Below are positions 9,169 to 64,000 of a stretch of DNA of 64,000 nucleotides, piece by piece. The notes beneath the pieces are model-generated. The model saw nothing but the letters and a program-made list of their open reading frames with translations, searched no databases and was not told the origin of the DNA. The first letter of the stretch is position 1, and every line of letters begins with the position of its first letter. A program made the position numbers and the translations under genes. This DNA comes from Obrimoposthia wandeli (lineage: Eukaryota): contig CDROCS010005070.1 of assembly GCA_977020255.1 (NCBI GenBank), positions 186,001 through 250,000 of the forward strand, read 5' to 3'.

Positions 9169-12100
9169 ATGGATTATATTTATGAAACTGATGATACAAT
9201 ATTTAGTGATGGTTCAATATCTCAGTTATCGGATTTAAAGAAGATTTATAATAACAGAATCGTATCACTAAGAGCTGCATCTAACTTGTTAGATATGTCA
9301 CATAAAACATTGCCTCGGAAAATTATATATAAGATATAATATGAATATGACGAGTATACGAAAAAAGTGACGAAAATAAATAAAGTTGCCATATATTTTG
9401 ATGGGAAAAGGATAAATAATAAAGAAGACGTGAAACTTACATTTTATACGAAAAAAGAGCTGTATAACAAGATTCACAAACCACGATGTATTAATAGTTA
9501 TTATTTGAATTTGACTAGCGATAATATTATTGAATTAGATGTGCCGCAGCACTTTATCGACTCTTTAAGAGTAATAGTTGAAGAATTCGTTACCTGTAAG
9601 ATGCAATTTGACCTCCAGGTGGAGTTTGAGAATAAGAGTGGTGTGAAACAATGGAACAAGGCTACTTTCTTTTCACCTGAATTCATCGATCAGGGTATAG
9701 AGTCTCTCAATGCTAAGATTGAGAAGAACTCTCAGAATGCCAGTAATTGGCAACTCAATCGTGTCCTGGAGATAAATTTTATTATCATTAAGACCACGGA
9801 AATTAATTATCTCCAAGGAAGAGCATATATTGCTACGCCCAATGAACTTCACAATTCGGTTGTGAATGTTCAGAATACGGGTGCTTTGCGTTTTATTTAT
9901 AGCATACTTGCTATTCTGAAGTATGATATTATATCTCAGCATAGGTATAGAGTCTCACAATATGATCCATATGTAGGAGATTTGATATACTCTTTAAACG
10001 ATATGGCGATGAGATTAGCTGATATCCCTCGTTTCGAAAGAGAGAATTCATCCTTATCAATAAATGTATTCCCTTACAATCACCTTGACATCAATACTTC
10101 TCCGGATCAAGATATTAAAAAAATTCTTTTATTGATACATTATATTGAATCACCAATCCGTAAGGCAATCCAGTTAATCTAATTCTACTGGAAGAAGGTG
10201 ATGAATATCACTACGTTGAAGTTCCAAATCCTAATAGGCTTCTAAACTATCGAAACAAAGAAGAAGGATTTGCACAAATCCAAAGTATATGGTGTCATAA
10301 ATGTCTTTGTGGATTTAGACGCAAAATAAGTTTTGAGAAGCATAAACCTCTTTGTATGATGAATATGGAGCATAATACACTATACCAGATGCCGAAGGAC
10401 AAATATATTCAATTCACAGATTTTTCAAAGACGATTTCACCGGCATTTGTTGTTTACGGAGATTCTGAAGCTGTTCCCCACCCCATTGGATTCATCATCA
10501 AATTCATCTCCTGATAGTGGCCACTATGTTGATGTCTCCAATTTCTGCAACAGGATTCACCCAAGATTACTCATTTTTCACTGGTGAAACCTGTGTTTTT
10601 CAATTCCTCTCCAAGTTGGAGATGTTGCTAAAGACAGTTGTTTTGCCTTGGTATAAGAAACATGCAGTGAAAGTTATGTAAGCACTTACGATCGAGCAAG
10701 AAGCTAGTTTCAAATCGGCTACTAGTTGTTACCTCTGTAATAAGAAATGCATTAAAAAGGTACGAGACCATGATCATATGACGGGTAAGTACCCTGTAGC
10801 TGCTCACAGTAAGTGCAATTTATCCAGACGAGTGAATCGTACTCTCCCCGTGGTGTTTCATTACCCGAGAGGGTACGATCTCCATCACATTTTCAAACAT
10901 GCGCTGAGCAACTTTCCTGACTGGAATGTCTCTGTGATTCCACAGTCTACTGAAAAATTCCAAGCAATGATGGTGCGTATTGGAGGAGTCTGTATTCAAT
11001 TCATCGATTCATTGCAGTTTTTGAATAGTAGTCTTGAAAGACTTGTTAAAAATCTAGTTTCCATTCCATTGACAAATTCTGTTTTTCAACCTCATCTTGT
11101 GAATGGTAAAGGGATATTTTCATATGATATGGCGGTATCAGAGAGTGCTCTCCGATCAATAACAAGCCTTCCACCAAAATGGGATGAAAAGATCAAAAGT
11201 GATCAATATGAGTTGGTGGAGAAAGTTTGGTAAGAGATTGGGTGTGAATCTCTTTGGGACTATATGTTGGTATATCTCAAAATGGACGTATATCTACTTG
11301 CAGATGTGTTTACAACATTTTGAGAGAAGGCTATTGCTTATGACGGACTGGAACCTCTAATTTTTTTTCATTCCAGGTTAGATATTATTATTATTATTTT
11401 TAATTATTTTTTACATAGGTTTAACATTTTCAAGCGCTTTCAAGTAGGTACTGAGCTAACAGCAGAAAGACTGACTGGATCTAGTGTGGAATTGATTCAA
11501 GAACCTGAGATGTATCGACTGTATGAAGAAGGTATTCGTGGAGGAATAACCTTCGTCAATCAACATAAGATTACTAACTCTGAGGATGATACTATTTTGT
11601 ACATTGATGTTAACAATCTTTATGGATGGGCTGTGTCCCAATTTTTACTGGTTGGAGATTTTACCTGGGTAACTGATAGATTGGAATGAGAAGTAATAAT
11701 TCATGAGCTTTCATATAAGGATCTAAGCTGTAGTGATTATGCTCATTTAATGGAAGTAGATATAAGTATTCCGAATGAATTACATGATAAACTTGACGAT
11801 CTTCCATTAGCTCTACGTAAGGATTGCCCGTCTGGAAGTCTTACTTCTAAATTACTTTTAACTCATTATCCAAAGAAGCATTACATTTTCCATTCTCGTC
11901 TGCTTCAGATGTATCTCAGGCTTGGGGCTAAAATAGATTTTTTGCATAGAGCAATTCGGTTTGCACAATGTTATAAAGACAATTCAACAAAAATCGCTGC
12001 TGCCACTAATGATTTTGAACGAAAGAATTTGAAGTTAATTCGTTATTTGGGAAATTTATTGAGAATTTGTAAAACGAATTAATTTATGGATTCGTTATAC

Positions 12101-33599: not shown

Positions 33600-35232
33600 C
33601 GAACCAGTTTTGTCTGTGATGTTTCATAACCTTATGGGTTATGATATGAATCATATTCTAAAATATGCTGACTTAAAATATAAATCCTTTTCAATTATGC
33701 CTAAATCAAGTAAAAGTTCATGTCCCTCCGTATAGAGATGAAGAGGGGGACATTGAAATTCAATGATTCATACCTTTTTACAACGTCACGTCTTGGATCT
33801 TTAGTTTCATACTTGTCAAGTTGTCTTTATACTACACAATACCTAAACCCTAATATTGCAACAAGTAAGGCAGTATTTCCCTATAAATATATCAGTGGCG
33901 TTGATAGGCTCATGGAGAGTCAGTTACCAGCTAAATCTGAGTTTCAAACCCGAGTCCCTGATCAGCAATATAATGAAGCCCTATGGATGTGGACCGTATT
34001 AGGGTGTAATACTATTAAAGATTACATGCTCGAATATATGAAACTTGACGTATTTGTTGTGTGATGTTTTTGAGGCCTTTAGACAGAAAGTAAGGGATGA
34101 TGATAATTTAGAGGCGCTCAATTTCTTCAGTATTCCCGGTCTCAGTTGGGCTAGCGCATTAAAAACGTTAGAGTAGGACGTACATTTTTTTGCATGATCC
34201 CGAAATGTATAACATGTTTGAGGCAGAGATCCGGGTAGGGATGACTTTCATCAATAAACATTAAGTTAAAACAACAGATGAAACATTCCTCCTATACATT
34301 GACACCAATAACCTATATGACTGGGCCTTGAGTCAACCGTTAACACATACAGATTTTACATGGATATATGATGGTTTGAAGCGATAATTTACGGTAATAT
34401 GCAGGAGTAAAGTCTTAAAAAACATGGATACTTGATGGAGGTTGATTTACACATACATATCAGTATCCATGATAAACTTGATGAATTACCGATTGCTCCT
34501 AATAGAGAAATCCCTCCCGGCTCAAAAGCTTCAAAGCTGTTGATGACTAATGAGGATAAAAATAATTACATCATACACTCACAACTACTACAATTTTACT
34601 TTTTTATGCGAGCAGAAATTAAACAAGTACATAGAGCAATAAAGTTTCATCAAGCTCCGATATTTAAAACGTATATTGACATCAATAGCCGGAATATTGG
34701 TCAAGCTGTATTGAACTTTTCTAAAATACATATGTACCAACTACAATACAGTGATCTTGACCGGTATCGTAAGCAATATCATGGTGATATCAACATAGTT
34801 GCAATGGATACAGACTCGTTTTTCTTAGAGTGTAAGCAAGTAGATACAGATATTCTCTTAAAACAAATTATTAAAGATCAGATGTTAGATACCAGTAATT
34901 ACTCACTCACATACGAGTTAATTAACGATTCTCATCAAAATGTGATTGGAAGGTTTAAAGATGAAAGCAAGTGGACAGTGCTTTATGATGAATAGGTATT
35001 TCTGAAACTGAAATGCTACTCCTTGAAAACGAGTATGAGGGCTAAGGTTATCTCCTTTAAACAAACTGACATCAGGCATGAGCATTTCATCAAGAGTTAT
35101 ATAGATTATGAGATTATAACTGCCGGTCAGACGCGTATTTTATCGTGTTATCATCAATTATTTACAATGTTTAATGATAAAATTGCGTTAAAGTGTTATG
35201 ACGATGAAAGGGTTTGGATTGAGAAAATCTAA
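33600..35232 (+). pseudogene. Polinton/Maverick pPolB remnant 2 (degenerate, internally deleted)
   Basis: VMFHNLMGYD, LKFNDSYLF, KAVFPYKYI, DYMLEYMKLDV, NFFSIPGLSWASALK, LYIDTNNLY.WALSQPL, IGQAVLNFSK, AMDTDSFF, LDTSNY, IGRFKDE, CYDDER. Confidence 0.9.
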
Positions 35233-39919: not shown

Positions 39920-41218
39920 CAGGGTGTCCCATAACGAATTACCCATGTTAAAAAACATTATAAAACGATTATAAATTCGATCAAAATCTTCAAGATTTTT
40001 AACTTTGCATGGAGTATATATTTGCTACACATCCTTATTGTTTCGTTTTACTATATCAATTTTATCAATAAGATATGGCGCCAGAAACAAAACGTGCCCA
40101 AATTGTTGCATTAAAAAATGCTGGAATTTCTAACAGTGATATAGTAAAGCAGCTGGGTGTGTGTCGCAAAACTGTTTTCAACGTCTGGAAACGACATAAT
40201 GAGGAGGCTACAACATTTGAGAAACCTAATCTAGGACGAAAAAGGTCAATCCGTACAAAACGAGTTGCTGAAGCTGTGATGAAACGAATCAAGAGGGATC
40301 CCATAGGAGCATGAGAAAATCTGCAAAAGCTATGAATATCTCAAAATCCTCAATGCATATGATATTTAAAAAGGATTTACTGATGACTGCATACAAAAAG
40401 CAATCTAGGCAGTTAATTTCAGGTGCTTCCAAGAAGAAACGGCTCAACAGGGGCATAATTATGTTAGCAGAAATGAAGCGCGCCGGCGAAAAAAAATGTA
40501 TCTGGTCTGATGAGAAGATCTTTACCGTGGAGGCAGTTGCTAATAAGCAAAATGATAGAATTTACGCACGTCATTCTACAGATCTTCCCGAAGGTAGCAG
40601 AACACATTTCAAGCGACAGAAACCAGCTGGAGTCATGGTGTGGGCTGCAGTTGCTTCTGATGGGTCTAAGTCCCCTCTGATATTCGTCGATGAAGGTGTT
40701 AAGGTGAACACTAATGTATACATCAAAATTTTGGATGAAAACGTGTTACCCTGGATCACTAGCACATTTGGAGAGCATTATGTATTTACTCAAGATGGTG
40801 CACCGGCTCACACGTCTAATTTGATTCAAAAATGGTGTAAAGATCATTTTTCTGAATTCTGGGACAAGAACGTATGGCCTCCCTCAAGTCCAGACATTAA
40901 CCCAATGGACTTTTCTATTTGGTCTATCTTAGAGAGCAATGTTTCCTCTAAATCATACTCAAATGTAGCTGCTCTAAAATAAGCCCTTCTTAACACATGG
41001 TCCAAGTTTGATGAGGAGGTGGTGCGGCGATCTTGTCAATCAGTGACCACTCGTTTACAGGCTATGGTGAAAGCAAGAGGCGGCCATTTTGAGATTTGAC
41101 TATTTTAATATATTGGTAAAATATATGTAAACGTATGGTCCGAGTTTTATTATTCTATCTTAAGTTAACATTGAATAATTTAAAAAAAAACATGGGTAAG
41201 TCATTATGGGACACCCTG
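39920..41218 (+). mobile_element. Tc1/mariner superfamily, maT (DD37D) element, full length
   Basis: TA-flanked TIRs CAGGGTGTCCCATAA..TTACCCATG / CATGGGTAA..TTATGGGACACCCTG; transposase inside. Confidence 0.95.
40075..41099 (+). pseudogene. DD37D transposase with one frameshift (~40305) and one premature stop (40980-40982)
   Basis: HTH N-terminus; WSDEK, QDGAPAH, SPDINPMD with 37 residues between the 2nd and 3rd Asp. The frame continues past the TAA to ..ARGGHFEI*. Confidence 0.92.
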
Positions 41219-43039: not shown

Positions 43040-46000
43040 ATGCAACAAAATTATGGCAGCGTTTCTCAGTTGGTCGCTGACAATTGTGTAACTGCCAATA
43101 ACTACTCGGTATTGTCTCTTCTCGACCAGGATCATCCACTCGACCTTTCTAAATGTGTCCGGAAATCTCTGGACGTAAACAACAATAGTAACATCGGTGC
43201 TGCTAGCGTCTCCCAGAATGCCAACATCAGCAATCCACTTCTGGAAGCGCCATTCGTCATGCAAAAACTCTTCGAAGAGCTCCTGAAACGCCGCACGGAC
43301 TGGCCCTCTCCCTACCCCGGGTCCAGCAACAGTGGCTTCTTCCCACCACTTCCACCGCCACCTCCGCTCGACCCGCGTCTCCAATGGACCTCTTTGTGGC
43401 ATCGACTGATGAACAGTGTCGCCCAGCAGCACTCGACACCGAACAGCAGCGGCAAACTACAGAACCCACAATTGGAGACTCGCCGTAGACCGACTTTGTC
43501 ACCGCGCTCCCTCACAAAACAGCGTCACAAGCGAACCAAGGTAACCGACTCGAGACTCTTGAAACGTGCTACAATCGGGGGTGAGGATCCTAGCATCGAT
43601 TTCAGCAGTTCGGCGCTGATCAACGAGGATGAAGACTACGAAAATCGGTCCATCCTGTCTCGGTCACCTTCGGTTAACGACTCCGAACTGGATGATGAAC
43701 CCAACAACCTCAACCATAATTCCAACATAAGCCAATCATCTTTGACTGCCGCCAGTTTGTGCTGTAATGATCCTAAGAAATATACATTAACTCCGGTACA
43801 TTTGCGCAAAGCCAAACTCATGTTCCTTTATACTCGTTATCCCAACTCCCAAATGCTGAAGAGCTTCTTTCCCGACATACTGTTTTACAAACAAAATACG
43901 GCTCAGTTAGTCAAATGGTTTAGTAATTTTAGGTAATTTTTACGTTTTATTAATTTGGAAATATTTTCAGTTCACGTAACCAATCAGAATTTGATTTAAA
44001 GGTTTTTTACTTTTTCAGAGAATTCTACTACAGTGAAATGGAAAAGGCTGTTCAAAGGTACTTATCCGGCGGTATCAAGTTCTCAACTGAACTCATTGTT
44101 ACTGAAGACAGTGAACTATTCAAAAATCTGATGACACACTTTAACAAAAATAGCCAAATTGAGGTCAGTACTGCAAAATTGCTTCAATTTTGTATCTTCT
44201 TGAGAATTTCAACCATTAAAATAGTCGAAAAATAACAGATCAGATAAAAATTTATGAAAATCCAATTTGATCTAAACAAATAAGAATTCATTTCAATTCA
44301 TTTTAATAATTCTGGCGAATGAGAGAATGTAAAATTTAGAAAATTAGCTGAAGAAATTAAAGAAATTTTTCAAAAGTTTTATTAAAATATACTATCACTA
44401 TTTTTTTAGAAATATAAAATTCAAAAAATTGATCAATTTTAACTTTTTCAAAATTTATGAATTTATAATGGCAGATATCAAGGTTTAGACGTTTTTTTAA
44501 ATAAACCGTATTTAAATATTTTAAAAAATCTGTAGTTGTCTATTTGATTTATTTTTAAATTTTGATTATCTTATAATTATTGTGGCCATTGAGAAGAAAT
44601 TTTATAGACTAAATAAAGTATAGTAAAAATCATTGTAAAAACAGGAAAAATATTGTCTTTATAACTTACATAATCCATGTTAGCAGCATGTACCATGTAG
44701 CAATGATATTCGGAATTATTTAAATAACGAACTTTAGCTTGATTTTACTTTTTTTTCAAACTTTACAATTGTGAATAAAAGTCTTAATAAAAATTAATTT
44801 AATTGAAATTGGTCATATAGATTGATCAATTTTATAAAATCAAATTTTAAACTGAAAAACTGGATATTGGGACTCTACTAGTATGCATTGTGCTAAGAAA
44901 TCGGATTATAAAGAAATGGTTACAAAGGTCTTTTGGGAATATTCTAAGAAATTTCTGATTGACATACTTCAAGTAAACAATACAATTATTTTCATTTCAA
45001 TGGTCGAAGAAAACAGTTCTGGACAATATTTTATTGTGTTTTCTCACGCTAAATTGTAGGAAATTATGTTGGTTTTCAAAGTTAATATTGTAACAAATTT
45101 CTATCCAACATTGAAAATAGTTTGAATACAGAAGATTAAATCTTAAATATAAAAAAGACTCTGTTTATTTGTTTTATATATGTCTTTGGATGTATTATGC
45201 AATGAATTTTCATATTAAACTTATAACTTATTTCAATGATTTTATTTTAAAAAATTAAACATTTATAAGAGAATAATCTGAAGTTTCATTTAATCTAACT
45301 CATATTAATTTTATAGGTTAATGATATTAAATTAGCGAATTTATGCTTAAAATTTGCTAAATACATCTATTAAAATAGAAAATCCGTAACAGAAAACGAT
45401 AAAAGGTCTAGTTTTAAGAATGATATAATTTAATTTTTTAGCTTATTTAAATATATGATTTTAAATAAGTCAAATATAATTTTTCTATTTGAAAATAAAA
45501 TTAACTATATTAAAAGTTATATTATTTGTTAAATAATAATAAAATAAATTTGAACTTTAAAATAAATAAAATGTAATTATATTATTAACTTTAGTTTTTT
45601 TATATGAAACAATTAGTATAACCTACACGAATAATAGTAGAAAATAATCTTTTCAAAATCATTTTCGTTTAAAGGTATGACAATTTAAGGACATTTAAAC
45701 AAAGATATTTTAATCTTTAAGTTTAAAATTTCTCATTTTTGCAAGTGTATAGAAATTATGAATGAAAAAATTATGCCAGCATTAATATTTAGGGGTATAA
45801 TATTTAAACTGTTAATAGATAAATTAAATTGTATCAACAAAGTTTTTTTACAACTCAACATAAACAGAATATACAGGGTATTTCTGAATAGCCACATACT
45901 TTTGTTTTAACATTATTTTAGATTTTTGTAAATAATGCTTTCTTTAATAATTTTAAGATAAATAAGTGATATATCTTATAGTATGTAGATTAATAAATAA

Positions 46001-47198
46001 AAATTAAACAATGTATTATCAATTTTCATAGTTAATTAATAATATGTAATTGGAAGCAATAAAGTAAATTATAAAAATTCATTGTAAAATACAACATTCA
46101 CTGAAAGAATAGATCAAACAATACATATAAGAAAAGGTTTGAATAAATTCGATTGTAACAAATGTATTTTCTGTCAAAAATAAAATATATTTATGGAATA
46201 AACTCAAGCTATGAGGTTGATAAAACATATAAAAACATTCTAAATCGTAACAATGTTTATTTGAACAAAATTAAGGAAAAATAATTGTATTTATTTAGCA
46301 TAAATTTTGTATTTATCTAAAAATATTGTCAATCAATTTATAATAAAATATAATTAACTTTTGTAAATGCTTTATATAATTAGAATTGATAAATGACTAA
46401 ATATATAAAAGAAGTTTTATCGTATTGAAAACTATATTATAGATAATAAAATTATATTTTTTCAAATTAAAGTTGTTATCAACACCCTTATTATAGATTA
46501 AAACAAAACTATGACATTTGCAAGATGATTTATAATTATATTTTTAAAATAAATTTCCAGGCTCAATAATTTTATATTTTACATACTTTGTGTATAAGTT
46601 TGATTTATTTGATCTGTCTTCGATTTATTTAATAGTTCATTTTTATCTTTTAATTGCAAATTAGGTACAAATTAAATATAAAATAGCAATAATCAAGATT
46701 TAATTGTTAAAATGTAATTCAAATTATTATAATTTTTATAATTAATAATAACATATTTTATTTAAAGCCTAAAATGTATAAAAACATTATAACCTTAATT
46801 TGTATTTCTGAATCCAGGTCCCAAAGGAGTTTATGATGTGTGTTCAAGTGACCCTACGTGAGTTCTATGAGGCCATTTCTGTGGGCAAGAATCTTCACCA
46901 ATCCTGGAAAAAACCTATCTACAAGAATATCGCCAAACTCGATCAACCTCTACCGGAGTTCTTTCGAGATCTGTCCTGGATGTTAGAGCTAGCTCGTGAT
47001 GACTCTAATAGTGGTAGCAACAACGGGAACAGCAACAACGGGAACAGCAACAACGGCAGTAATAACAACACCAACAACAACAATGTTTTGCTTATGGCCA
47101 GTCACCCGCATCATCATCACCACCACCAGCAACAGCAGCAGCATCAACTGCATGCTCCAGCTATGCATCCTTCCATCCTTCATCATCAGAGCTGCTAG
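43040..47198 (+). CDS. pros: Prospero/Prox homeo-prospero transcription factor; exons 43040-43932, 44019-44163, 46818-47198 (472 aa if 43040 is the start)
   Basis: [31 protein letters not shown]|[25 protein letters not shown]|[32 protein letters not shown]; GT-AG introns preserve frame (1419 nt). Upstream exons cannot be excluded. Confidence 0.95.
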
Positions 47199-52758: not shown

Positions 52759-53275
52759 TGTTGGGGTTTCTATACGAAACTTGGTATAGATCCTCTTGAG
52801 TGCGGAGGGCCCCAACGTGAGTTCGATTAGAAGCAGGTCTTAAAGTTGGTCGTGGCCTACTTAGTGTTATTATTGCCTATCTCTTGTACTATCTGAAGGT
52901 ATTTGATTAGATGTCTCTTAGTCTGAAGGGTGCAAAAACAACTTGTTCTAATGTAGGAAATTGTTTATTTGAAATTCACGTAACTAACACAACGATACGT
53001 TTATGTACGTATTTCTAAAAAGTATGATAAAATTCCTAAAGGACTTCTGTAAGTCTCTACAAGAAGTGGGGATGAACCACGTATCGATTTTACGTTCAGG
53101 TGATTAAGCTTTTAGGTTTATTCTTCTTACTTAGGTTGGTTAATCTATAACGCAACTCTCTTAAAATTCTTCGCTCCTACTTCTGATCTTTAGATAAAGT
53201 TTCTTGATCCCTTAACTCTATCTGTTGTGTGTTTGACCCCAAATTGTCCACTGTGAACAATGGGTCTCCTAAAAC

Positions 53276-53674
53276 CTAATTGTCAAGATGACAATGAAAA
53301 ACTTACTCCTAATTGTCAACTATGGACAATGAACGAGCCGAATTGTCAGCTAGGGACAATGAGTCTTACCGAATTGTCAACTAGGGACAATGAGTATTTA
53401 TCCGAATTGTCAACTAGGGACAATGAATGAACCTAATTGTCAGCTAGGGACAATGAATCTTACGGGCAAAAAGTCTGGGTATGATTCCTAATTGTCGCTG
53501 GGGACAATGAATAAATGGCTGATCTTAATTACCAACTAGGGGCAATGATTTTGTTAAAGAGTCGGAAATCCTAATTGCCAGCTAGGGGCAATGAATATGT
53601 TTAAAATATGTTAAACAACCTAATTGCCAACAAGGGGCAATGAATTTATCCTAATTGCCAACTAGGGGCAATGA
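53276..53674 (-). repeat. Array of ~11 short palindromic units (ATTGTC-N7-GACAAT / ATTGCC-N7-GGCAAT) with variable spacers, inside the LTR
   Basis: Units begin near 53276, 53309, 53339, 53370, 53403, 53432, 53487, 53525, 53571, 53619, 53651. Confidence 0.9.
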
Positions 53675-53798
53675 ACGGTTTTAGTTGGTGTTCTTACCAG
53701 TTACTGCGACTAGTGGGACGTCCGATGCAGGATCCGTAGGTCTTTCGGAATCTTCTTCGAAGCAGCGATTATTACTTGTGAGAGGTTTGAGTACACGC

Positions 53799-54220
53799 TT
53801 GAATACACTTTGACTTTGACTTTTTGGACACTTGAATACACTTTGACTTTGACTTTTTGGATACTAAACAATTATTTTTATTCACAGCAATTATTTTTAT
53901 TCACCTTGAATACACTTTGACTTTGACTTTTTGGATATTAAACAATTATTTTTATTCACAGCAATTATTTTTATTCACCTTGAATACACTTTGACTTTGA
54001 CTTTTTGGACACTAAACAATTATTTTTATTCACCTTGAATACACTTTGACTTTGACTTTTTGGACACTAAAACAATTATTTTTATTCACAGCAATTATTT
54101 TTATTCACCTTGAATACACTTTGACTTTGACTTTTTGGACACTAAACAATTATTTTTATTCACCTTGAATACACTTTGACTTTGACTTTTTGGACACTAA
54201 AACAATTATTTTTATTCACC
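53799..54220 (-). repeat. Tandem array (7 cores; units 33-75 bp) inside the LTR
   Basis: TTGAATACACTTTGACTTTGACTTTTTGGA core repeated 7 times with variable CAATTATTTTTATTCAC sub-repeats. Confidence 0.9.
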
Positions 54221-54230
54221 TGAAATCACT

Positions 54231-54331
54231 ACTTACCGAGAACTCAATTGTTCGATTTGTGGTCCAGTCGACTCTGGCTGTTGAATCCCGTATTTGTGTT
54301 TTTGAATTGAATGAACCTATCTCCTTATATA
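54231..54331 (-). promoter_or_regulatory. LTR promoter TATA box (54331-54324) and downstream 5' splice donor G|GTAAGT (54237|54236)
   Basis: TATATAAG then G|GTAAGT occur in the same order in LTR A (13376-13369; 12970) and LTR B (35771-35778; 35997). Confidence 0.65.
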
Positions 54332-55001
54332 AAGGCAGTCTTGTCAATCAAATGACAGCTGATTCGTATCGCTGGAAATTTCTTCTTACTTAAGATCTAA
54401 AAATCAATAAATCCTATTGCACTTAAAATGTGCTTACCTTGACGTCTCTTGATTGACGTGACTAATTGATTTCCTAATTTAATGGCTTCTCCTTAATTAA
54501 TCTTAACAATTGTCCTTTTTGGGTTAATTAATTTAACTTTTATACATTTTCACATTATACACGACCTTCGTGGTCCTCCTAATTTTTACCCTAAATTCCA
54601 CTAATTTTAATTCTAACTAAAATTAATATTTTAATTTAATTTTCAACCTTGTTTTCAAGGATTTTTATTTTAGTATTTAATCGACTAAATATTTAAATTT
54701 CTTAATTCTCAAACCTAACATACCTCGGGGGTTCCAAAAAAGTTACGTCCCCGGAACGTATCGATTTTACTTAATAAGCCTTTGGCTGTTGATTTTAGGT
54801 TCATCCCTACAAAATCAATCATTCAACTTCAACAAACATGCCCAAAAAATTTTCCTCAAAATCCCGGTTTTTAGTGGGAGACATAATATATAATTTGGAG
54901 CAAGTCTCAAACCATACATTATTACTTATACACAACTAAAAATTTACACACAAAATTACATGCATAACTAAGGGTTAGGAAGGAAAGAAGGGAGGAAAGG
55001 A

Positions 55002-55532
55002 TCAATTGTCATATGTCAGGTCAATTGTAATTGTCGGCTGGTTCCGACTGGCCAGGTAGCGCAGAACCTGCTCCAGGGGTAGGTCGGGAAAGGACGGACT
55101 GTCCCCGTTGTACAGGTGTAGTTGTTGGCTCCGGGTTAGGTGTGGACTCTCGATGAACAGGTCGAAATGCTGCCCGTTTATGGCGTGATTTTCTATCCAG
55201 TGCCGTCTGGCCTGGAACCACGAGTGGCAGTCTCGACTAGACCGCCATCTCTCGCGGATGCCCAGTTGTGTGTCGCGCCGGCGTGCGAGACACACGTAGC
55301 ATTGGCAATGTATGCCACCAATGCAGCTGGCAGGCGATCGGGTGCCCTTGTGCCTTCCACGGCTCTGGAGCGTCCATTTGGCAAAGGGTGTCCGGCACAG
55401 TGGACATGTGATATGGCCGGGGGGTCGAGCCTTGGTCCACAAATAGAGGCACTCCTCGTGGAATTTGTGACGGCAGCCGACAGGGGATGCTGATACCGCC
55501 CAAATCTTCTCCATGCATACAGAACACTTCAT
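55002..55532 (-). CDS. RING-H2 protein 3 with extra Cys motif and C-terminal extension (176 aa from MKCSVC)
   Basis: CSVC..CRHKFHEEC..W..CPLC, then CIGGIHCQCYVC; acceptor TTTTCTTATGCAG directly before the ATG. Confidence 0.85.
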   Translation of the reverse strand: MKCSVCMEKIWAVSASPVGCRHKFHEECLYLWTKARPPGHITCPLCRTPFAKWTLQSRGRHKGTRSPASCIGGIHCQCYVCLARRRDTQLGIRERWRSSRDCHSWFQARRHWIENHAINGQHFDLFIESPHLTRSQQLHLYNGDSPSFPDLPLEQVLRYLASRNQPTITIDLTYDN

Positions 55533-55872
55533 CTGCATAAGAAAACAACTCCTTTCAATTTGGGGTTCACTGTTCTCATTGTTAATTTAAATTTTATTTC
55601 AAAACGAATCCTTAGTTATCTAATCCTACCGAGTTTTGTTTCGATTTTAGGCATGTTTACGCATTCACACTAAGCATAAAAATTGTCTTTTTTAGAAATT
55701 CAGTATAATAATTACAATTTCAGTTAAACATCATACATAAAAATGGTAATGGTCAATTTACAGTTCACAAGATTATATAATTATGATTACAATTATGGTA
55801 GCTAATTTATCGCGGTATGCGATACACAGGGTAGTTCATGATATCACGTTCAAGTCAGAAAGTTACCTTCGA

Positions 55873-56178
55873 TTATTGTTGGGGATTGGGCTGGCCTGTG
55901 CTTCGCTCCTCCACGCAGAACGAGCACCAGCAATCGCAGATGGTTTTCCAGCAGTGTACGATGGGTACCACTGCTTGGAGGCTGTCCTGGTTGTACACGT
56001 AGTGTACTGAGAAGGTCGCTCTGCACATCGGGCAGGTTGGGAAGTCGAGGGGATTGTTGCTGTTTGCGATGGGGATCCACGTCTCGAGGCATTCGACGTG
56101 GAAAAGGTGGTCGCAGTTGTTGGGCTTGGTGTAGAAGTCCACGATGCTCTCGTAGCAGATGGAACATTCTCCAGACAT
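55873..56178 (-). CDS. RING-H2 protein 2 (101 aa)
   Basis: CSIC..CDHLFHVEC..W..CPMC, then CWKTICDCWCSFC. Confidence 0.9.
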   Translation of the reverse strand: MSGECSICYESIVDFYTKPNNCDHLFHVECLETWIPIANSNNPLDFPTCPMCRATFSVHYVYNQDSLQAVVPIVHCWKTICDCWCSFCVEERSTGQPNPQQ

Positions 56179-56238
56179 TACTGTGGGAGGGTTGATGTTG
56201 AATTTGGGCTCGATTGAGGACTGGTGGTTGTGTGATGT

Positions 56239-56538
56239 TTACACAAAAGTGGTCTGATTTTGTCGATCTGACAAACAGTAATAACACCAACACTCTCCGA
56301 AATTCTTCCAACAGAATACCACCTGTACATATACATCCTCTTGGTTGGGTTCTAACATGATGAATCTTGCGAATTGTCTTCTGCATACAGGGCAACAAGG
56401 GTATGTTGGATGTCCGAACTGTCCATAAGTTCTGATCCATGTCGATAAACATTCCTCGTGGTGTAAATGGCTGCAGGTTTCGGGTCTTGTTCTTCGTTCG
56501 GTTAGATCTTCCAAACATATTGGGCATTCTTCGGACAT
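56239..56538 (-). CDS. RING-H2 protein 1 (99 aa from MSEECPIC)
   Basis: CPIC..CSHLHHEEC..W..CPVC, then CWKNFGECWCYYC. Confidence 0.9.
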   Translation of the reverse strand: MSEECPICLEDLTERRTRPETCSHLHHEECLSTWIRTYGQFGHPTYPCCPVCRRQFARFIMLEPNQEDVYVQVVFCWKNFGECWCYYCLSDRQNQTTFV

Positions 56539-56661
56539 TCTAAATACATGATGATGATTAATTTCTACATGAGTTTTATATATTTCTACTATTTGTACAA
56601 TCACTTCTAGATATTTCTAAACATTTCACACACTAATTTATCTACAACCTCCTCTGACTCA

Positions 56662-57711
56662 TCATATCTTGATGGGAGGCGGAGGTAAGGGTCGCAATTC
56701 CACTTCCTCCATGATGGGTGTGTCACAGCATCGCAATCTTTCGCATTTTCGTCGTATTCCTGGGCATACTTGACTGCCTTTTACGCACACGATTGTCAAT
56801 AGAACCACTGCTGTTGACACTACGGCCATTCCAATTAGGGCATTGACCGCTGTTATTCCGCTGTCTGATGATTTATAATCATACTTCATTTTGTTGTTTG
56901 TCGGTTCGAATGACATTTCCATGGGTTTTGATCGGTTTCCATGTATTATGTCCGATTTTCTAAAAATTCGGGGATTTGGGTGTTTTGTTTCTGATGGAAC
57001 AGGTATTATTATTTTGGATTGGAAATGATGTTTGGGATCTAGTGGGATCGTTCCCCTCACTCTTGTCCTCTTAATAATTGTACTTTGGTTTCTGGGATTG
57101 AGCTCTTTTTCTTTCGCTTCTGTCTTTGTTCTGATCACTGTCGGTTTTTTGGAATGTCGTTTACTTTCGTTTACTTTTGCCTTCTTTCTGACTAGGATTG
57201 GCCTTTTGGGAATGATTTTCCTGGGTTTGATACTTATACCGGATCTACGAAATCGACGGTTCTGGTATCTTAGAGTTATGTAGAATATTTCACCTGTTAT
57301 TATCATGATTATGGTCGAGGTCTCTGTAGTATTACTGGAAATTCGATTACACAGACATTCTGTGTTAAAATGTGGTACTAACATTTGGCTTTGGATTTCG
57401 AATCTGATTCCGCCATCTGGGTTGGGACACATTACTGTTACTCTGTCGGTCTCTAGCAATCTGAAAAATATCCTAACGGAATTCCATACGGCTTTACGTC
57501 GTCTACCTGTGATCATAATCCTGTCGACAATTTTCCAGATGCGTTCATCTCTAGGCAATATTAATGACTTTGTTCGGATACTTTGGATAATCCGCTTCCT
57601 CTTCGATATTGTTATCCGTAGGTATAACACTTTTTCATGATACAATAATATTAAATTGTAATCGGGTGTATTTTGGTCGATTTTTATTCTGACCTGTCGG
57701 ATGACATACAA
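56662..57711 (-). CDS. Basic ectodomain + C-terminal TM + Cys/Pro-rich tail; probably the C-terminal part of the preceding ORF
   Basis: 349-aa open frame, open upstream to ~57780; sequons NTT/NES/NQS/NRS; RFRR; TM ITAVNALIGMAVVSTAVVLLTIVCV; tail CC..PLPPPP. Confidence 0.75.
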   Translation of the reverse strand: MYVIRQVRIKIDQNTPDYNLILLYHEKVLYLRITISKRKRIIQSIRTKSLILPRDERIWKIVDRIMITGRRRKAVWNSVRIFFRLLETDRVTVMCPNPDGGIRFEIQSQMLVPHFNTECLCNRISSNTTETSTIIMIITGEIFYITLRYQNRRFRRSGISIKPRKIIPKRPILVRKKAKVNESKRHSKKPTVIRTKTEAKEKELNPRNQSTIIKRTRVRGTIPLDPKHHFQSKIIIPVPSETKHPNPRIFRKSDIIHGNRSKPMEMSFEPTNNKMKYDYKSSDSGITAVNALIGMAVVSTAVVLLTIVCVKGSQVCPGIRRKCERLRCCDTPIMEEVELRPLPPPPIKI

Positions 57712-57772
57712 TTTCTGATCGATATTGTCGGTTGCTGACGTCTGTAGATGAATGTCTACTACGTGATTTGTT

Positions 57773-60700
57773 TTAGAAGGGGGTTTCTATGTATACTGCC
57801 CGTATTACGTCTTGTCTCCATTTACTGATCATGATCTCATAACTAGCCTTGGTAGTGGTGATTTGTATGATCAGCATGATTCCTATGATCGTTCGATTCC
57901 TAAACTCAGGAACTTCAATGAAACAAGTCAAATTACTCATATAGTACGGTCTTTCCTCGATATGTTCATATATCGTTGGCTGGTACTCTGGTGCTGGTTC
58001 ATCTAGAAATGGTGGTCTTGGTATAATTGTGTTGAATTTTTGTAAGTTCATTTGACCTGTTCGTCTTGCGAGATCATGACGTTTCTTTTTTGATCTCGAC
58101 TCTATCTTTGTACAACAAAACAAGATGAGTAATATTAATATTATAAATCCAATGATCAGTGCGAGTATTGGATTAATCAATTCTAGAATACCGTAACGTA
58201 CTGCTGGTATTCCTTTACTCTTGATGGTTAATATTTTAAATTTGTGTGCACTTTGGTTGGATATGTCACTGAGAAGTACTATTTTAGTTTGTCCAAATGT
58301 GTAGTCTTCACATGTGACAACATCAATTCCATAATGTCTATTAAGTGTTTTCATTTCGGTCGCTGGAACTATACATATCCGTCCTGGGCATCCTTTTACA
58401 CACATGATCATTACAGCTTTACTGTAGGATGTCTTGATTATTTCTAGGGTGTTGTCTAGATTTCTCAAATGTAAATTATATTCGGATAGTGTCATCAATT
58501 CGGCTTTACTGGTTGGCATGGCTTGCAGTACCAATCCAATTACTACTCCATAAATCAATCCTTGTGCAACGGTGCACAGGGCCTTGACTGACCTTTTGCA
58601 AAGGGTTTTAATTATCAATCGTTTAAGAGATATCTGTTTCTGATTGGATCGTTTTGTTGTCTGTCGTTGTTTTGACATCTCCTCGATTCCATCTCTTCCG
58701 ATAATCAACTGTACCGGTTTACCTTGTATCGTCAACTTTCCCAATCCATTTTTGGCGGACAAGCATGTTTTATGTCCTTCCATCGTTTCAATTATTACTC
58801 TCTTACTTCCATACTCACGTGTTTTGATGACATCGCCGTCGAATATATACGTTGGTCCTTTTGTATCAGCATCTTTTTGTATTTCCTTTACAACTCGTTT
58901 TCTTCGCTTGCATCCGGCGAATGTTGTTGATATTCGGTCAAGTGTGCGCTGTCGGTCAGCTTCGTAATCTATTCGAAATTGATTCAGTATTCTGTTTTGT
59001 GGGTAAAATATCGCTTCATTTACTATGTTGTCCTCGATCCTTTCGTCTAGATACACAAGCACTTTGTTCGTTGGTCCATTTGGTCTTTTCATCTTTACAA
59101 ACTGAAATCTTTTACTGTCGGTTCTCATAGATCGAAGACATTTTCGGATGATCCACACATCAATTAGTCCTAACAACACTAATAGCATCATCAGTGCCGG
59201 CGTATGGTACTGTATGGTGTAGTTGTGGATATCGATGAACCAGGAACTATTTCCGTGGTTGGAGCCTATCTCCTGTGCTCCCGTTATCGGCATTAAACAA
59301 CTTAACAAGCCTATCGCTAGCAATCTTTGGTATTGAAAGCTGGGCACTGTTGTTGTAGCTTCATTTGTTTCTCGTTGTTGTTTCCTCTTTTCGGTGTATT
59401 TCTCTATTTCTCGAACGAGTAACGGTTTGAATTCCGTATTCGGTCTATTCTGTTTGATGTAGACCATCGCTTCTTCTGGCGTGTGACCATGGTACTCTAC
59501 CAACAAGGATACACCTATGGTAGGCGCTAACATTGTACCTTTTTTCTGATATATCAGAACGCCGTTTCCTTCTGTGACTTCAGCTTGGATGGTTTGAGTC
59601 AATTTCGTCAGATGTTGTTGTGCATCGTTTATTTCTCGATTGGAAGCATGTATGTATCGAGTGGTGTCGTCTTCAGTATTTTGACACAGACTAATTATCT
59701 CGTTTCCGACTTCAACAATGTTGATTACTCGGTTGATACTGTGGAACTTTAATCCAGCAGTATCTATATCTCCTGGATGACATAAAAATACTTTTGGCAT
59801 TATCTGTGTAATTTTGTCGACTCCGGCTAAGAATAACCCGGTCAACGATAATGCTTGGAGGAAATTCTTTTCCTTTGGGTCCTCAGGAATGTCGTCCATC
59901 CGTCTTTGTTCTTGCAACAGAAGTTGGTAATTTGCCAACTGTCCCAAAAAATTAAGATTTGGGTTTGCAATACTTCTTCTCTCCTGTAGGTATTTTAGCG
60001 CTTCTAGTACCTGCATTCGTCTAGTCTTTATTAGGTATGCTAATACTAGAGTTGCTGATCGAGAAATTCCTTTCTGACAATGTACCAACACTTTTCCTTG
60101 GTTCCGGAGTTCTCTGTGAAGTATTTCGTTTGTTTCTACGAACCATTCGAGAAGATTAGCGTCCATTGAGTCTTTTACTCTTAATGTCATAGCTCTGATC
60201 GTCTGATATTGTGATTTGTGATTCATTGTAACGTTGATCACGTATGTTATCCCTTGTTCCAACAGTTTCTTTTCATCTGTTGCATCCTCCACATTTCCGA
60301 GGTATAACTTACCTGGAATGATCTCACTCATTGGTGGCATTAATTCTGACTCTTCAAGTTTTAGTCTTTCTAATCTCTTCTCTATTTGTTCGTCGATGTT
60401 GGATAGTTTCGCCAGTTTCTTTCCTCTCAGCATTCGTATTGCTGGAGAGATATTCATCTTTGTCTCTGATGTCTGTTCCTTTGTTGAGTCTTCTTCCGAC
60501 TCGGTCTCCTCTGCAGATTTAATTCGTCTTTCTTGTATATTCTGTTTCACGAATTCTATGTTTTGTCTTTTTCTGCTCTCTTTAGCGAATTCAATCTCCA
60601 TGGTTCTTCCGAATCGCTCTATTATGTTATCTTCGGATTCTGTTGATTCTGTATCGTTACTCTCCGGTTCGCTGTCTTCACTAGACTCGCTCGAAGGGTA

Positions 60701-61687
60701 TTCTGGTATGTCTGTCTGGACTGAAATTAATGAAGGGGTTAGAATAATTGGATTGATTTCCCCTTCGTATTTGTGAATCGGATACGGTATTACACTATCT
60801 TTAAGTATTTCAACTTGGAACTGTGCTCCATAGCACATGACAATTGTTTCTAATTTACCCATGATGGACAATCCATCAAAATAGGTAACATTCAGCTTAG
60901 ATATCGGTGTCTTCGCATAATTAATTAAGTTTACTCGTATCTCAGTTGATGACGGCCATCGATTTTTTAGTAAAATTATAATTTCGTCGTTTATCGATGT
61001 GATCACACTTGGCGCGGATGATACTATTTCAGCATGATATTTTGGCTGGATTGAGTTGGTCACTTGTTCTCGGATCATATTGATTCTTAGTGGTTTTTTA
61101 TTTTTAGCTTCCCACTTCCGGTATCCGCTGTCAATGCGTAACTCTGCCGTTGCTTTGATGATTTTATTGTTAGCCACTTCCGGTTGGGTCGGCGAATGAA
61201 ATCCTTCTATTACGCTCAACCTTACAGATACTTCCGTTTGATCTGTATCTAACCGGTGAGATTCTGGTATACAACATACAATTGTCTTTCCGTCAAAGTA
61301 TTTGGTGTCCATCTGACAAATTATCTTTTCAGTGTCAGCGTCGATTAAATGGACTCTCATGATATCTCTTTTCCCATGTGAATTACGTAATACCATTATT
61401 ACATCGTGGTATTCTTGTTTGAGTCTTTTTGGTGTACCATGCAGTATGTGACCACCGGCCGGTTCCTTCTCTTCCTGACTGGCTAGTCCTGCTTCAGTAC
61501 TGTCATAGTTCTGCCATGCAACTATGTTTGGTGTCAATGTGATTTCGATTATCACTTTCTCAGTCGTAAACACATTGGAATTTTGATAAAGTGCTGCGAC
61601 TAATGTATTTCCGTCGTAGTATGACACTCTAAGTTCGCACAGAAATTCGTTTGTCAGTGCATCTTTCACAATGACTTCTTTAGCCAC
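57773..61687 (-). CDS. 1304-aa cargo ORF: Ig/IPT-like repeats, dual-specificity phosphatase, pseudophosphatase, multiple signal/TM segments
   Basis: YFDG/YYDG repeats; SEIIPGKLYLGN..D..VLVHCQKGISRSATLVLAYLI..NPNLNFLGQL (DSP); second DSP-like fold with VLIYQKKGTMLA. The called start is a GTG, and the frame overlaps the integrase end. Confidence 0.88.
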   Translation of the reverse strand: MAKEVIVKDALTNEFLCELRVSYYDGNTLVAALYQNSNVFTTEKVIIEITLTPNIVAWQNYDSTEAGLASQEEKEPAGGHILHGTPKRLKQEYHDVIMVLRNSHGKRDIMRVHLIDADTEKIICQMDTKYFDGKTIVCCIPESHRLDTDQTEVSVRLSVIEGFHSPTQPEVANNKIIKATAELRIDSGYRKWEAKNKKPLRINMIREQVTNSIQPKYHAEIVSSAPSVITSINDEIIILLKNRWPSSTEIRVNLINYAKTPISKLNVTYFDGLSIMGKLETIVMCYGAQFQVEILKDSVIPYPIHKYEGEINPIILTPSLISVQTDIPEYPSSESSEDSEPESNDTESTESEDNIIERFGRTMEIEFAKESRKRQNIEFVKQNIQERRIKSAEETESEEDSTKEQTSETKMNISPAIRMLRGKKLAKLSNIDEQIEKRLERLKLEESELMPPMSEIIPGKLYLGNVEDATDEKKLLEQGITYVINVTMNHKSQYQTIRAMTLRVKDSMDANLLEWFVETNEILHRELRNQGKVLVHCQKGISRSATLVLAYLIKTRRMQVLEALKYLQERRSIANPNLNFLGQLANYQLLLQEQRRMDDIPEDPKEKNFLQALSLTGLFLAGVDKITQIMPKVFLCHPGDIDTAGLKFHSINRVINIVEVGNEIISLCQNTEDDTTRYIHASNREINDAQQHLTKLTQTIQAEVTEGNGVLIYQKKGTMLAPTIGVSLLVEYHGHTPEEAMVYIKQNRPNTEFKPLLVREIEKYTEKRKQQRETNEATTTVPSFQYQRLLAIGLLSCLMPITGAQEIGSNHGNSSWFIDIHNYTIQYHTPALMMLLVLLGLIDVWIIRKCLRSMRTDSKRFQFVKMKRPNGPTNKVLVYLDERIEDNIVNEAIFYPQNRILNQFRIDYEADRQRTLDRISTTFAGCKRRKRVVKEIQKDADTKGPTYIFDGDVIKTREYGSKRVIIETMEGHKTCLSAKNGLGKLTIQGKPVQLIIGRDGIEEMSKQRQTTKRSNQKQISLKRLIIKTLCKRSVKALCTVAQGLIYGVVIGLVLQAMPTSKAELMTLSEYNLHLRNLDNTLEIIKTSYSKAVMIMCVKGCPGRICIVPATEMKTLNRHYGIDVVTCEDYTFGQTKIVLLSDISNQSAHKFKILTIKSKGIPAVRYGILELINPILALIIGFIILILLILFCCTKIESRSKKKRHDLARRTGQMNLQKFNTIIPRPPFLDEPAPEYQPTIYEHIEERPYYMSNLTCFIEVPEFRNRTIIGIMLIIQITTTKASYEIMISKWRQDVIRAVYIETPF

Positions 61688-63057
61688 ATCTGTCGGTTGT
61701 GTTTTTCGAAAACAACTATTATCTCTTCGTCTTCTTCTAATATCTCTTGTGGTGCGATGTGTCGGATTACTTCCTTTTCCTCTTGGTACTTCATTCTGAG
61801 CATACCAATTCTCGCTGGTTTTTCCTTGCTACCACTCGTCATCATGTTTATGTAGTTCCGATCACTTACCATTCGTGTAAGTTTAATGGTATTGGTATTC
61901 GATTTCGATTTCTGTGATCTTAACTCATATCGTGACGCATTATCTTTATTTGGTACTAATTTGCATCGATTTGCATGTACAATCATCGGTTCCTTGTTCC
62001 GATTCTCTTCGTTGATTACTTTCAAATTTGTTGAGGTTGTCTGGATCACCTTGTATGGTCCTTTGTATGGTCTATGAAGTTTAAACGATAGACCTGGTTC
62101 GATGACTGGATAAAATATCATCACTTGATCTCCGACTCTAAATTCATGTGGTTTTGCTTTTTTGTCGTATTGTTCCTTGTAACCTTCTTGATTGAATTTC
62201 AACTTCAATCCGGCTTTGGTCCAAGCATCTTGTAACCTTTCCTTCATAACGACAATGTATTGTTCAGTTTCTAGATACTGAGATGTTGGCTCGGTCCACT
62301 CCAGATCCATTGGCATATTGTTCTGTCTGAGATACATCAGATAGAATGGTGTGTGACCCGTCGCCTCTCGAACTGAATTCCTGTAAGCATATAAACATGA
62401 AGGTAAATATTTATCCCAATCCTCTTGCTTGTCGGAGCAATAGGATTGTACCATCATACATAAAGTTTTATTAAACCTTTCTACCAGACCATCTGTCTGT
62501 GGGTGATATGGTGAAGTTTGCAACTTCATGATTCCGAATATCTTCGATACTGCTTTTATGACTTCTCCAGTGAAGTTCTTACCTTGATCTGTTAACAACT
62601 TTCTAGGCACTCCGTATCGAAATATTATCTCTTCCACTAAGATTTGCGCTATTGTTTCAGCTTTCTGGTTCTGCATGGGATATGCTTCTACCCATCTCGT
62701 CATGTAGTCCGTAAATACTATGACGTACTTGTTTCCTTTACTTGATTCTCTCAATGGTCCCAATATATCCATCGCTGTGAATTCCATTGGTGCCAAGGGA
62801 ACTGGCATTGGTTTCAGTGGAACTTTAGTACGAGTTCCGGTGTCTTTTCTGGTTAAACATACTTTACATTGTTTACACCATTGTTTTATGTCGTCTTCCA
62901 TACCATCCCAATGGTACTTCTCTTTGATTCTGGCTATTGTCTTTCGCCCTGACAGATGTCCTCCTAGTGTTCCGTCGTGATACTGGATCATCACTGCTGT
63001 TTTCAATGACTTCGGAATTACTACTACTATCTTTCCGACATTATTGACAATATACAA
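61666..63057 (-). CDS. Gypsy integrase (HHCC, DDE, GPY/F) with a C-terminal extension; frameshifted from RNase H
   Basis: HDGTLGGH..CKQC, AMDILG, LTDQG, DGLVERFNKTL, PYKGPYKV. Confidence 0.95.
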   Translation of the reverse strand: MYIVNNVGKIVVVIPKSLKTAVMIQYHDGTLGGHLSGRKTIARIKEKYHWDGMEDDIKQWCKQCKVCLTRKDTGTRTKVPLKPMPVPLAPMEFTAMDILGPLRESSKGNKYVIVFTDYMTRWVEAYPMQNQKAETIAQILVEEIIFRYGVPRKLLTDQGKNFTGEVIKAVSKIFGIMKLQTSPYHPQTDGLVERFNKTLCMMVQSYCSDKQEDWDKYLPSCLYAYRNSVREATGHTPFYLMYLRQNNMPMDLEWTEPTSQYLETEQYIVVMKERLQDAWTKAGLKLKFNQEGYKEQYDKKAKPHEFRVGDQVMIFYPVIEPGLSFKLHRPYKGPYKVIQTTSTNLKVINEENRNKEPMIVHANRCKLVPNKDNASRYELRSQKSKSNTNTIKLTRMVSDRNYINMMTSGSKEKPARIGMLRMKYQEEKEVIRHIAPQEILEEDEEIIVVFEKHNRQMWLKKSL

Positions 63058-63068
63058 GATTCCTTCTT

Positions 63069-64000
63069 TTATCGAGTATTTTTCGTCATTTCATCGTTTA
63101 GATCTCCTTTCACCAACAATTCTTTGATTAGACTCAGTTCTTCATCTTCTGTCTGTTCTTTGATGATTTCTTTGTCTATTTTACCCGTCTTTAGCAAAAT
63201 CGTCAGTAGATTTGCTTCTCCTTTTTGGTCATTGGCTCCATCTTCTTCTGGAATTATGTTTCCTTTTTCATCTACATTTGTCAATCTCGATAAACAATCT
63301 GCGTTGCCATTCGACTTTCCGGTTCTATAACGGATTTCTAGATCGAATTCGGCCAATTTTAGAAACCATCTGTTTAATCTACTCATCTCATCTCTATGTT
63401 TATATAAGAACTGTAGTGGTTTGTGATCTGTATACAGGAATACTTTTTGTCCTAGCAAATAGTGTCTGTACTGTCTACATGAATACACTATGGCTAGACA
63501 TTCCTTTTCGATAACAGAGTATCCTCTTTCGGCTCTGTTTAATCCTCTACTTGCATACTCAATGACGTGTTCTCTTCCTTCGTCATCCTCTTGTCCCAAT
63601 ACTGCTCCTACAGCATAGTTACTTGCATCTGTCATGAGTATGAACTGTCGGTTTATATCTGGAAACGCTAATATCGGTGTTTTTATCAATCTTTCTTTTA
63701 AATGCTCGAACGCTTGTTGGGCTTCTTCTCCCCATATGAACTTCTCATCTTTTCTCGTCAACTTTCTCAATGGTGTTGCTATATCTGAAAAATGTTCAAC
63801 AAATCGTCTATAATAATTCGCAAGACCTAAAAAACTCTGTATCTCCTTAACAGTCTTTGGTGCTAAATGCGCTTTTACTTTCTCGATCTTTGCCGGATCA
63901 GGTCGAATGCCTTCTTTCGATACTATATGTCCTAAAAATGTTACTCGCTCTTTAGCCCATTCGCATTTTGTAGGTTTAACTTTTAATTTAGCGTTTTCCA
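63069..64000 (-). CDS. Gypsy Pol: RT C-terminus/connection and RNase H (5' truncated by window)
   Basis: Open frame from the window end: KCEWAKERVTFLGHIVSKEGIRPDP..SFLGLANYYRRFV..TDASNYAVGAVL..EKECLAIV..YTDHKPL..NADCLSR. Confidence 0.96.
   Translation of the reverse strand, partial: ENAKLKVKPTKCEWAKERVTFLGHIVSKEGIRPDPAKIEKVKAHLAPKTVKEIQSFLGLANYYRRFVEHFSDIATPLRKLTRKDEKFIWGEEAQQAFEHLKERLIKTPILAFPDINRQFILMTDASNYAVGAVLGQEDDEGREHVIEYASRGLNRAERGYSVIEKECLAIVYSCRQYRHYLLGQKVFLYTDHKPLQFLYKHRDEMSRLNRWFLKLAEFDLEIRYRTGKSNGNADCLSRLTNVDEKGNIIPEEDGANDQKGEANLLTILLKTGKIDKEIIKEQTEDEELSLIKELLVKGDLNDEMTKNTR

Follow-up and report, generated by a model that had tools for sequence, protein, structure and literature searches.

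Three small RING-H2 genes in the window, by which we mean the whole stretch of 64,000 nucleotides of Obrimoposthia wandeli DNA that was analysed, are cargo of a retroelement and not host genes. The trio lies downstream of the polyprotein stop and ahead of the 3' LTR in an env-bearing Ty3/Gypsy element; all full copies that were mapped show this arrangement, and the frames have no introns. That they are element cargo under selection we regard as virtually certain. Our preferred reading, to which we assign a probability of about 0.6, is that R1, R2 and R3 form a viral-like accessory E3 ligase kit, likely made from spliced subgenomic RNAs, which would mark host restriction or silencing proteins, with R3 aimed at those tagged with SUMO. 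An earlier note on this DNA had proposed three paralogous genes kept by selection; both the paralogy and the selection stand, but it does not mention what matters most here, namely that an LTR retroelement of high copy number carries them as accessory genes.

All three proteins carry the C3H2C3 ligands at RING-H2 spacing, as the earlier note had described, and score above the Pfam zf-RING_2 cut-off of 27.3 bits (37.4 for R1, 36.7 for R2 and 31.5 for R3). A RING-H2 regular expression found no match in positions 1-52000 of the window in any of the six frames. The proposed paralogy is supported; sequence identity is 38% between R1 and R2 and 30% between R1 and R3. The R2 frame is the same as that of R1 and begins 60 nt past the R1 stop. 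The longer open reading frame of R3 runs from its first Met (55538-55002, minus strand, 178 residues), but the start is probably the second Met, at 55532, because the first ATG is not retained across copies (A at position -6 in 18 of 48). The additional cluster C-x5/6-C-x-C-x2-C reported downstream of each RING is present with the sequences quoted; in each protein it begins exactly 23 residues past the final RING Cys.

Table 1. Positions in the window of the RING genes, the features within and around them, and the neighbouring parts of the carrier element.
Feature	Positions	Strand	Description
R1	56239..56538	-	RING-H2, predicted β-hairpin and Cys cluster; 99 residues
R1 Cys cluster	56275..56313	-	C-x6-C-x-C-x2-C
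R2	55873..56178	-	RING-H2, predicted β-hairpin and Cys cluster; 101 residues
R2 Cys cluster	55915..55953	-	C-x6-C-x-C-x2-C, plus conserved H75 and C81
R3	55002..55532	-	RING-H2, Cys cluster and variable helical tail; 176 residues, from the conserved ATG
R3 Cys cluster	55290..55325	-	C-x5-C-x-C-x2-C
TIDLT	55014..55028	-	Candidate SUMO-interacting motif, R3 C-terminus
Frame X	55850..56527	-	225-codon -1 frame over R1, spacer and R2; stop-free
Frame Y	55237..55533	-	-1 frame over the first ~98 R3 codons; stop-free
Acceptor-like site, R1	56540..56545	-	Ends 1 nt before the R1 ATG
Acceptor-like site, R2	56181..56186	-	Ends 2 nt before the R2 ATG
Acceptor-like site, R3	55533..55538	-	Directly before the R3 ATG; conserved amid variable DNA
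Polyprotein, 3' part	56662..64000	-	RNase H, integrase, dual-specificity phosphatase, hydrophobic tail; broken in the window copy
3' LTR	52759..54720	-	TG...CA, ~1.96 kb, tandem repeats

The carrier is a giant, recently amplified, env-bearing element. It is assigned to Ty3/Gypsy on its paired TG..CA LTRs, target-site duplication, PBS and domain order PR-RT-RH-IN. Of six other copies examined, the four with clean ends are 23.4-24.5 kb long and have LTRs of 1.9-2.4 kb; a target-site duplication of 4 bp was present in four of the four copies checked. The LTR pairs of two copies are 99.4% and 99.7% identical, and their insertion is therefore recent. The copy in the window runs on past the window to the end of the contig, where its partner LTR is found; its polyprotein is broken near 57770-57783, among other sites. 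Across ~16 kb, the polyprotein matches Pfam families for a CCHC Gag, a mononegavirus-type fusion protein, a protease, a BIR, a C3HC4 RING, a second protease, RT, RNase H, integrase and a dual-specificity phosphatase. The fusion protein match (PF24664, E = 1e-95) lies together with protease, BIR and RING in a single open frame; Gag lies upstream of env in the same register, but with breaks in every copy inspected. The DNA pattern of the R1/R2 cluster (C-W-x4/5-C-x-C-x2-C, two matches per element) occurs 13,558 times in the genome against 201 for a reversed control, that of the R3 cluster 5,702 times against none and that of the PBS 5,408 times against none, counts that haplotype duplicates may inflate up to twofold, as a SUMO exon was found twice with identical protein sequence. 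At 5,408 × 23.5 kb, which is an upper estimate, the element may account for as much as ~9% of the assembly.

Several further features of the element were observed. The dual-specificity phosphatase (window 59500-60350, minus strand) has an intact VHCxxGxSR motif and is followed by a second phosphatase-like stretch; its closest database match is an uncharacterized prawn protein at 27%. The IAP-like BIR and C3HC4 RING unit lies between two aspartic protease domains (copy L033:2509-4600, plus strand), which could free it from the polyprotein. The PBS stands 8 nt behind the LTR (copy L032:5366-5395) and resembles, we assume, elongator tRNA-Met. The 3' LTR is preceded not by a typical polypurine tract but by 40 conserved nucleotides (window 54721-54760), and the central part of the LTR, where the tandem repeats lie, varies strongly among copies that are near-identical elsewhere (window 53115-54500 against L032:3640-5020), making it another exchangeable module. 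The 123-nt gap from the polyprotein stop to R1 (window 56661-56539, minus strand) has a p-distance of 0.05-0.09 and is more conserved than nearby synonymous sites, which suggests a cis-acting element. In copy L051 (minus strand), a deletion has created an in-frame fusion of R1 with the latter half of R2.

Selection was assessed on the window copy and 66 others, 60 of them picked for divergence through motif matches and so not a random sample. R1 is intact in 30 of these 67 copies, R2 in 36 and R3 in 26, and 27, 35 and 26 distinct intact sequences, respectively, were compared. The broken copies in this divergence-enriched sample are part decay and part assembly noise, and error-rich copies are present in the assembly. 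The earlier note had named decay in other copies as one of the observations that would count against it; what we found is that R1, R2 and R3 are all intact in six of six young copies (chosen by R1 protein score) and that changes common to several copies are purifying. Overall ω is 0.47 for R1, 0.14 for R2 and 0.21 for R3. In place of a branch-specific dN/dS, we counted changes shared by two or more copies, taken as having arisen in active elements, against singletons. The pN/pS of shared and singleton changes is 0.19 and 0.75 for R2 (p = 1e-6) and 0.29 and 0.97 for R3 (p = 7e-15), compared with 0.54 and 0.55 for R1, where the departure from neutrality is weak (p = 0.015). Purifying selection is therefore clear-cut for R2 and R3, and R1 is a weak case.

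The selection on intact ligands that had been proposed extends to the additional cluster, clearly so for R2 and R3. Its pN/pS is 0.10 in R2 and 0.23 in R3 (p = 3e-4 each); for R1 the constraint has p = 0.12. Among copies not chosen on the motif of the gene concerned, each cluster Cys is retained in 23-26 of 26 (R1 and R2) or 25-28 of 28 (R3), with codons that alternate between TGT and TGC from copy to copy. An I/V, a W, a P and the Arg that follows the last CxxC are retained in all three genes, in 25-35 of 26-35 intact sequences; we take these to be the E2-contact positions. Positive selection on R3 was considered and is not supported, as its extra divergence is equally synonymous (mean dS 1.10, dN/dS 0.23).

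The predicted structure of R2 (AlphaFold, mean pLDDT 84) consists of the RING, a β-hairpin (residues 58-72), a loop bearing the cluster (pLDDT 70-75) and, beginning at residue 86, a helix; that of R3 has the same order with a low-confidence helical tail. With the R2 model, Foldseek returned viral E3 proteins as the best matches (PE38, IE2, CG30, ICP0 and giant-virus RINGs), ten of them at E = 0.001 or better, baculovirus PE38 among the matches with E = 1.8e-4 and TMq = 0.61. No match reached E = 0.001 in the PDB, or for the R3 model against viral structures, and the best Z in a VIA fold search was 7.2, covering the RING only; these Foldseek and VIA nulls do not make the fold new. Matches in the PDB cover the RING only, and those of the fold searches span residues 1-68 and 1-61. 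Pfam has no match over residues 70-95, which hold the cluster, and the combination of RING and cluster was found in none of the best 150 outside profile matches (135 of which carry the RING-H2 pattern) and in none of 24 viral and metagenome loci. Atlas look-alikes of R1 are mostly viral RING clusters, which we treat as a lead only. Within the searches covered here, the module of RING, hairpin and Cys4 cluster is without a database counterpart. A second zinc site at the hairpin and cluster is proposed because the cluster is conserved and suitably spaced, the AlphaFold models themselves holding no zinc, and we consider such a site probable.

R3 differs from its two neighbours in its history. Identity between the window copy and one other (L083) is 98-99% over the polyprotein tail, R1 and R2, 69% over R3 and 94% behind it, the drop being limited to the R3 gene. 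Both regions are present in 49 copies, and the largest R1-R2 cluster among them, of 28 copies, contains seven R3 clusters. For 26 copies, the R1-R2 and R3 trees each reject the topology of the other (AU p = 5e-83 and 4e-4, from 2,000 replicates, which is below the program's advice), and the R3 tree is 5.5 times longer. Since the dS of R3 is high alongside this divergence, the variants are old alleles shuffled by recombination. The pattern fits balancing selection against a variable host target, and we infer that R1 and R2 are stable paralogues and R3 the variable, host-facing one. The distinct, allele-swapped R3 tail is also compatible with different substrates for the paralogues, as the earlier note had suggested.

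The C-terminus of R3 carries a candidate SUMO-interacting motif (SIM). A sequence of the form [VILT][VI]DLT, mostly followed by acidic residues and written in many synonymous codon states, ends 15 of the 26 intact R3 sequences, which thereby combine RING and SIM-type motif; a looser search finds a SIM-like motif in 23 of 66 copies, two of the oldest among them. No DLT-type motif occurs in R1 or R2. The chance of the motif in a shuffled R3 tail is 0.003, a figure computed after the motif had been noticed. The motif is lacking in 11 of the 26 intact sequences, including a large young allele group, and is therefore dispensable in successful lineages; some of these keep remnants at or behind the stop. 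The SIM core of PIAS1 is given as VIDLT and that of RNF4 as VDLT (PMC3901395), and EVIDLT of adenovirus E1A is reported to bind Ubc9, not SUMO (PMC3685863). A model of the R3 tail in complex with host SUMO scored 0.43 against 0.07 for the best of three controls, a score rated as weak and obtained with SUMO supplied as two exon pieces, which is outside the calibration of the tool; the band up to 0.60 holds 5 of 78 solved complexes and also all four passing mismatches of 180. Contact agreement between runs was at least 69% and the partner pLDDT at least 54, and the score may reflect memory of solved SIM-SUMO structures. We put binding of SUMO by the modelled tail at a shade under even odds, and R3 is, as tentatively, a candidate SUMO-targeted ligase.

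Three small frames behind a 16-kb frame need separate access to ribosomes. A pyrimidine-rich YAG stands 0-2 nt before each of the three ATGs. The CAG before R3 is kept (C in 48 of 48 copies, A in 48 of 48, G in 44 of 48), compared with 8 of 42 to 17 of 48 for the four nearest upstream AGs. The surroundings of the R1 site are conserved throughout, so the conservation of that site does not discriminate. Flatworm spliced leaders (SLs) that end in ATG and resolve polycistrons have been described (PMC12582326), and cis-splicing and SL trans-splicing are therefore both candidate routes; judged from the sites, expression by one or the other is somewhat favoured. Retro-copy patterns, which would miss junctions resembling genomic bases, gave no spliced or SL-capped retro-copy among 28 matches, all of them noisy unspliced copies, and the direct ATG-junction pattern gave two matches, both repeats of these. 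Four unlabelled read runs from one sample showed near-even cover and, among the joints shown, none at the acceptor-like sites; depth fell over R3, but contig depth is no basis for ranking parts and we draw nothing from it. Other routes were considered. An internal TATA promoter before R1 was rejected, as 20 of 45 younger copies have it but none of 17 old ones, an AATAAA before R3 (24 of 38 copies) is unconvincing, and slippery heptamers are lacking within R1, R2 and R3.

The accessory E3 ligase kit would work as follows. The RING of each protein would recruit a host E2, with the hairpin and Cys4 cluster as a second zinc-stabilized module beside it for substrate or partner binding. The small E3s would be translated from spliced subgenomic RNAs and would direct the destruction of host proteins that serve restriction or silencing. 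R3 would reach SUMO-tagged proteins through its C-terminal motif, possibly in the way of herpesvirus ICP0. We consider it likely that R1, R2 and R3 are active ligases; that the silencing machinery is the target is a conjecture that we would back at clearly less than even odds.

The RING proteins might instead serve the life cycle of the element or the survival of the cell, through ubiquitination of Gag or Env for budding or trafficking, or through a block of apoptosis and stress signalling together with the BIR-RING unit and the phosphatase. The same element encodes an env, an IAP-like BIR with a C3HC4 RING and a phosphatase with an intact catalytic motif, and the cargo of the planarian element Burro is described as apoptosis- and ubiquitination-related (PMC6431247). 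This explanation leaves the SIM-like tail unaccounted for, likewise the many deep, swapped alleles in R3 only, and we judge it unlikely.

A further alternative is that the three lack ligase activity and are zinc-finger proteins that serve as adaptors or as regulators binding RNA or DNA, in the manner of Tat or Rev, with the overprinted frames X and Y sharing the work. The conserved additional cluster and the basic R3 tail would suit such a role, and the -1 frames do avoid stops. Frame X is open in 19 of 24 copies with intact R1 and R2, in all 24 of which the spacer is 60 nt; across 46 younger copies it has 18 stops in 10,251 codons, a level similar to that of the RING frames, whereas the +1 frame has 280 in 10,253, and the 21 oldest copies have 49 in 3,707, with one stop common to seven copies. 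Frame Y has 14 stops in 4,050 codons, against 78 in 3,197 behind it. At dinucleotide-matched columns, the stop-forming T is present in 4 of 51 compared with 31 of 72 (p = 1.4e-5); the R3 tail, as a control, shows no stop avoidance (7 of 21 and 5 of 14, p = 1). However, X and Y have a pN/pS of 1.1-1.5, that is, no constraint at the level of amino acids, and no Pfam family, and all three RING proteins conserve the E2-contact positions as well as the Arg that follows the last CxxC. Frame Y has no conserved Met near its start; frame X opens exactly at the acceptor-like AG of R1, where a leader-supplied AUG would be in frame. We consider regulators of this kind improbable. It is very improbable, and already largely refuted by the selection results, that the trio are captured host RING genes carried passively, or host genes merely inside a repeat: many single copies are broken, but the frames have no introns and keep their place after the polyprotein and before the 3' LTR in all full copies mapped, and shared changes are purifying over deep divergence with singletons near neutral in R2 and R3.

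A bolder form of the preferred reading, in which the element encodes an ICP0-like counter-defence kit of three RING ligases with an undescribed second zinc module, one ligase being SUMO-targeted, undoing SUMO-dependent piRNA or heterochromatin silencing and passing between elements as an allelic cassette, with the polycistron resolved by SL trans-splicing and the leader AUG opening the overprinted -1 frame, appears distinctly unlikely as a whole.

The surroundings of the element hold other genes and repeats. The window contains a host Prospero/Prox1 gene (homeo-prospero domain, 43040-47198, plus strand), from whose last coding exon seen the 3' LTR of the element is ~5.5 kb distant. It is 51% identical over 143 residues to Schmidtea PROX-1, the best match over a continuous stretch, which points to a flatworm of planarian type; the top score, however, belongs to a nematode-labelled protein with a duplicated homeodomain stretch. 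Fragments that we take to resemble Polinton-type DNA polymerase genes lie at 9601-12082 and 33720-34995 (plus strand, no Pfam match above cut-off), and a DDE_3 transposase fragment at 40311-40982 (plus strand). Elsewhere, L144:121-1557 consists of tandem 270-nt units, each encoding a ubiquitin-like domain and closing with a stop; the opposite strand holds an open frame of 450 codons, and similarly spaced matches occur on several contigs. Ubiquitin-like domains also lie within long open frames at L143:79-1101 and L142:224-826 (both plus strand), the downstream part of which looks to us like retroelement Gag; this suggests a second element family with ubiquitin cargo.

How transposons counter-attack piRNA and heterochromatin silencing in animals is largely an open question. 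SUMO is required for piRNA-guided silencing in Drosophila (10.1101/533091), and Burro elements are repressed by planarian PIWI (PMC8532177). The present element supplies three candidate antagonists that are tiny and expressible, and its natural R3 alleles include some that carry the SIM-like motif and some that lack it, so that Burro-type interference with host ubiquitination becomes directly testable.

The closest likeness is to Burro (GYPSM1), a giant Ty3/Gypsy element of planarians, which the present element resembles in its layout. Shared with the Burro account (PMC6431247) are thousands of copies, a BIR, accessory frames, cargo related to ubiquitin and apoptosis, and a single polyprotein, of ~5,000 residues in Burro, with a mononegavirus-like env between gag and pol; Burro exceeds 30 kb, whereas the present element has 23-24.5 kb. 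Ubiquitin-related cargo in Burro is thus already known, but section 7 of that account (PMC6431247) makes no mention of a phosphatase after the integrase or of a 3' RING-H2 triplet, both of which are found here. The Burro domains MATH, BCL2, ankyrin, SUMO-like and dUTPase had no Pfam match in the present element (E = 0.01, five frames), the published calls having used profile-profile searches. Our literature search, whose reach ended short of the original Burro paper and its supplements with possible similar 3' frames, found no description of such a 3' RING cassette. The viral RING E3s (ICP0, VZV ORF61, baculovirus PE38, IE2 and CG30, and the small giant-virus RINGs) share the predicted order of RING and β-hairpin. 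Herpes RING E3s are of the C3HC4 type, and most of the listed matches are larger, whereas the present proteins are retroelement-encoded, have 99-176 residues and combine RING-H2 with an additional Cys4 cluster. ICP0 and ORF61 combine a RING with SIMs against intrinsic defence (PMC3685863). The cellular STUbLs RNF4 and Arkadia share with R3 a RING and a [VI]DLT-type SIM, but RNF4 has several SIMs for avidity (PMC3901395), whereas R3 has one, at its C-terminus. The small 3' frames behind acceptor-like sites, the overlapping frames and the likely anti-host role recall the complex retroviruses. These carry small 3' accessory genes, and proteins of the Vif/Vpx type borrow host cullin ligases, whereas the present element brings RING domains of its own.
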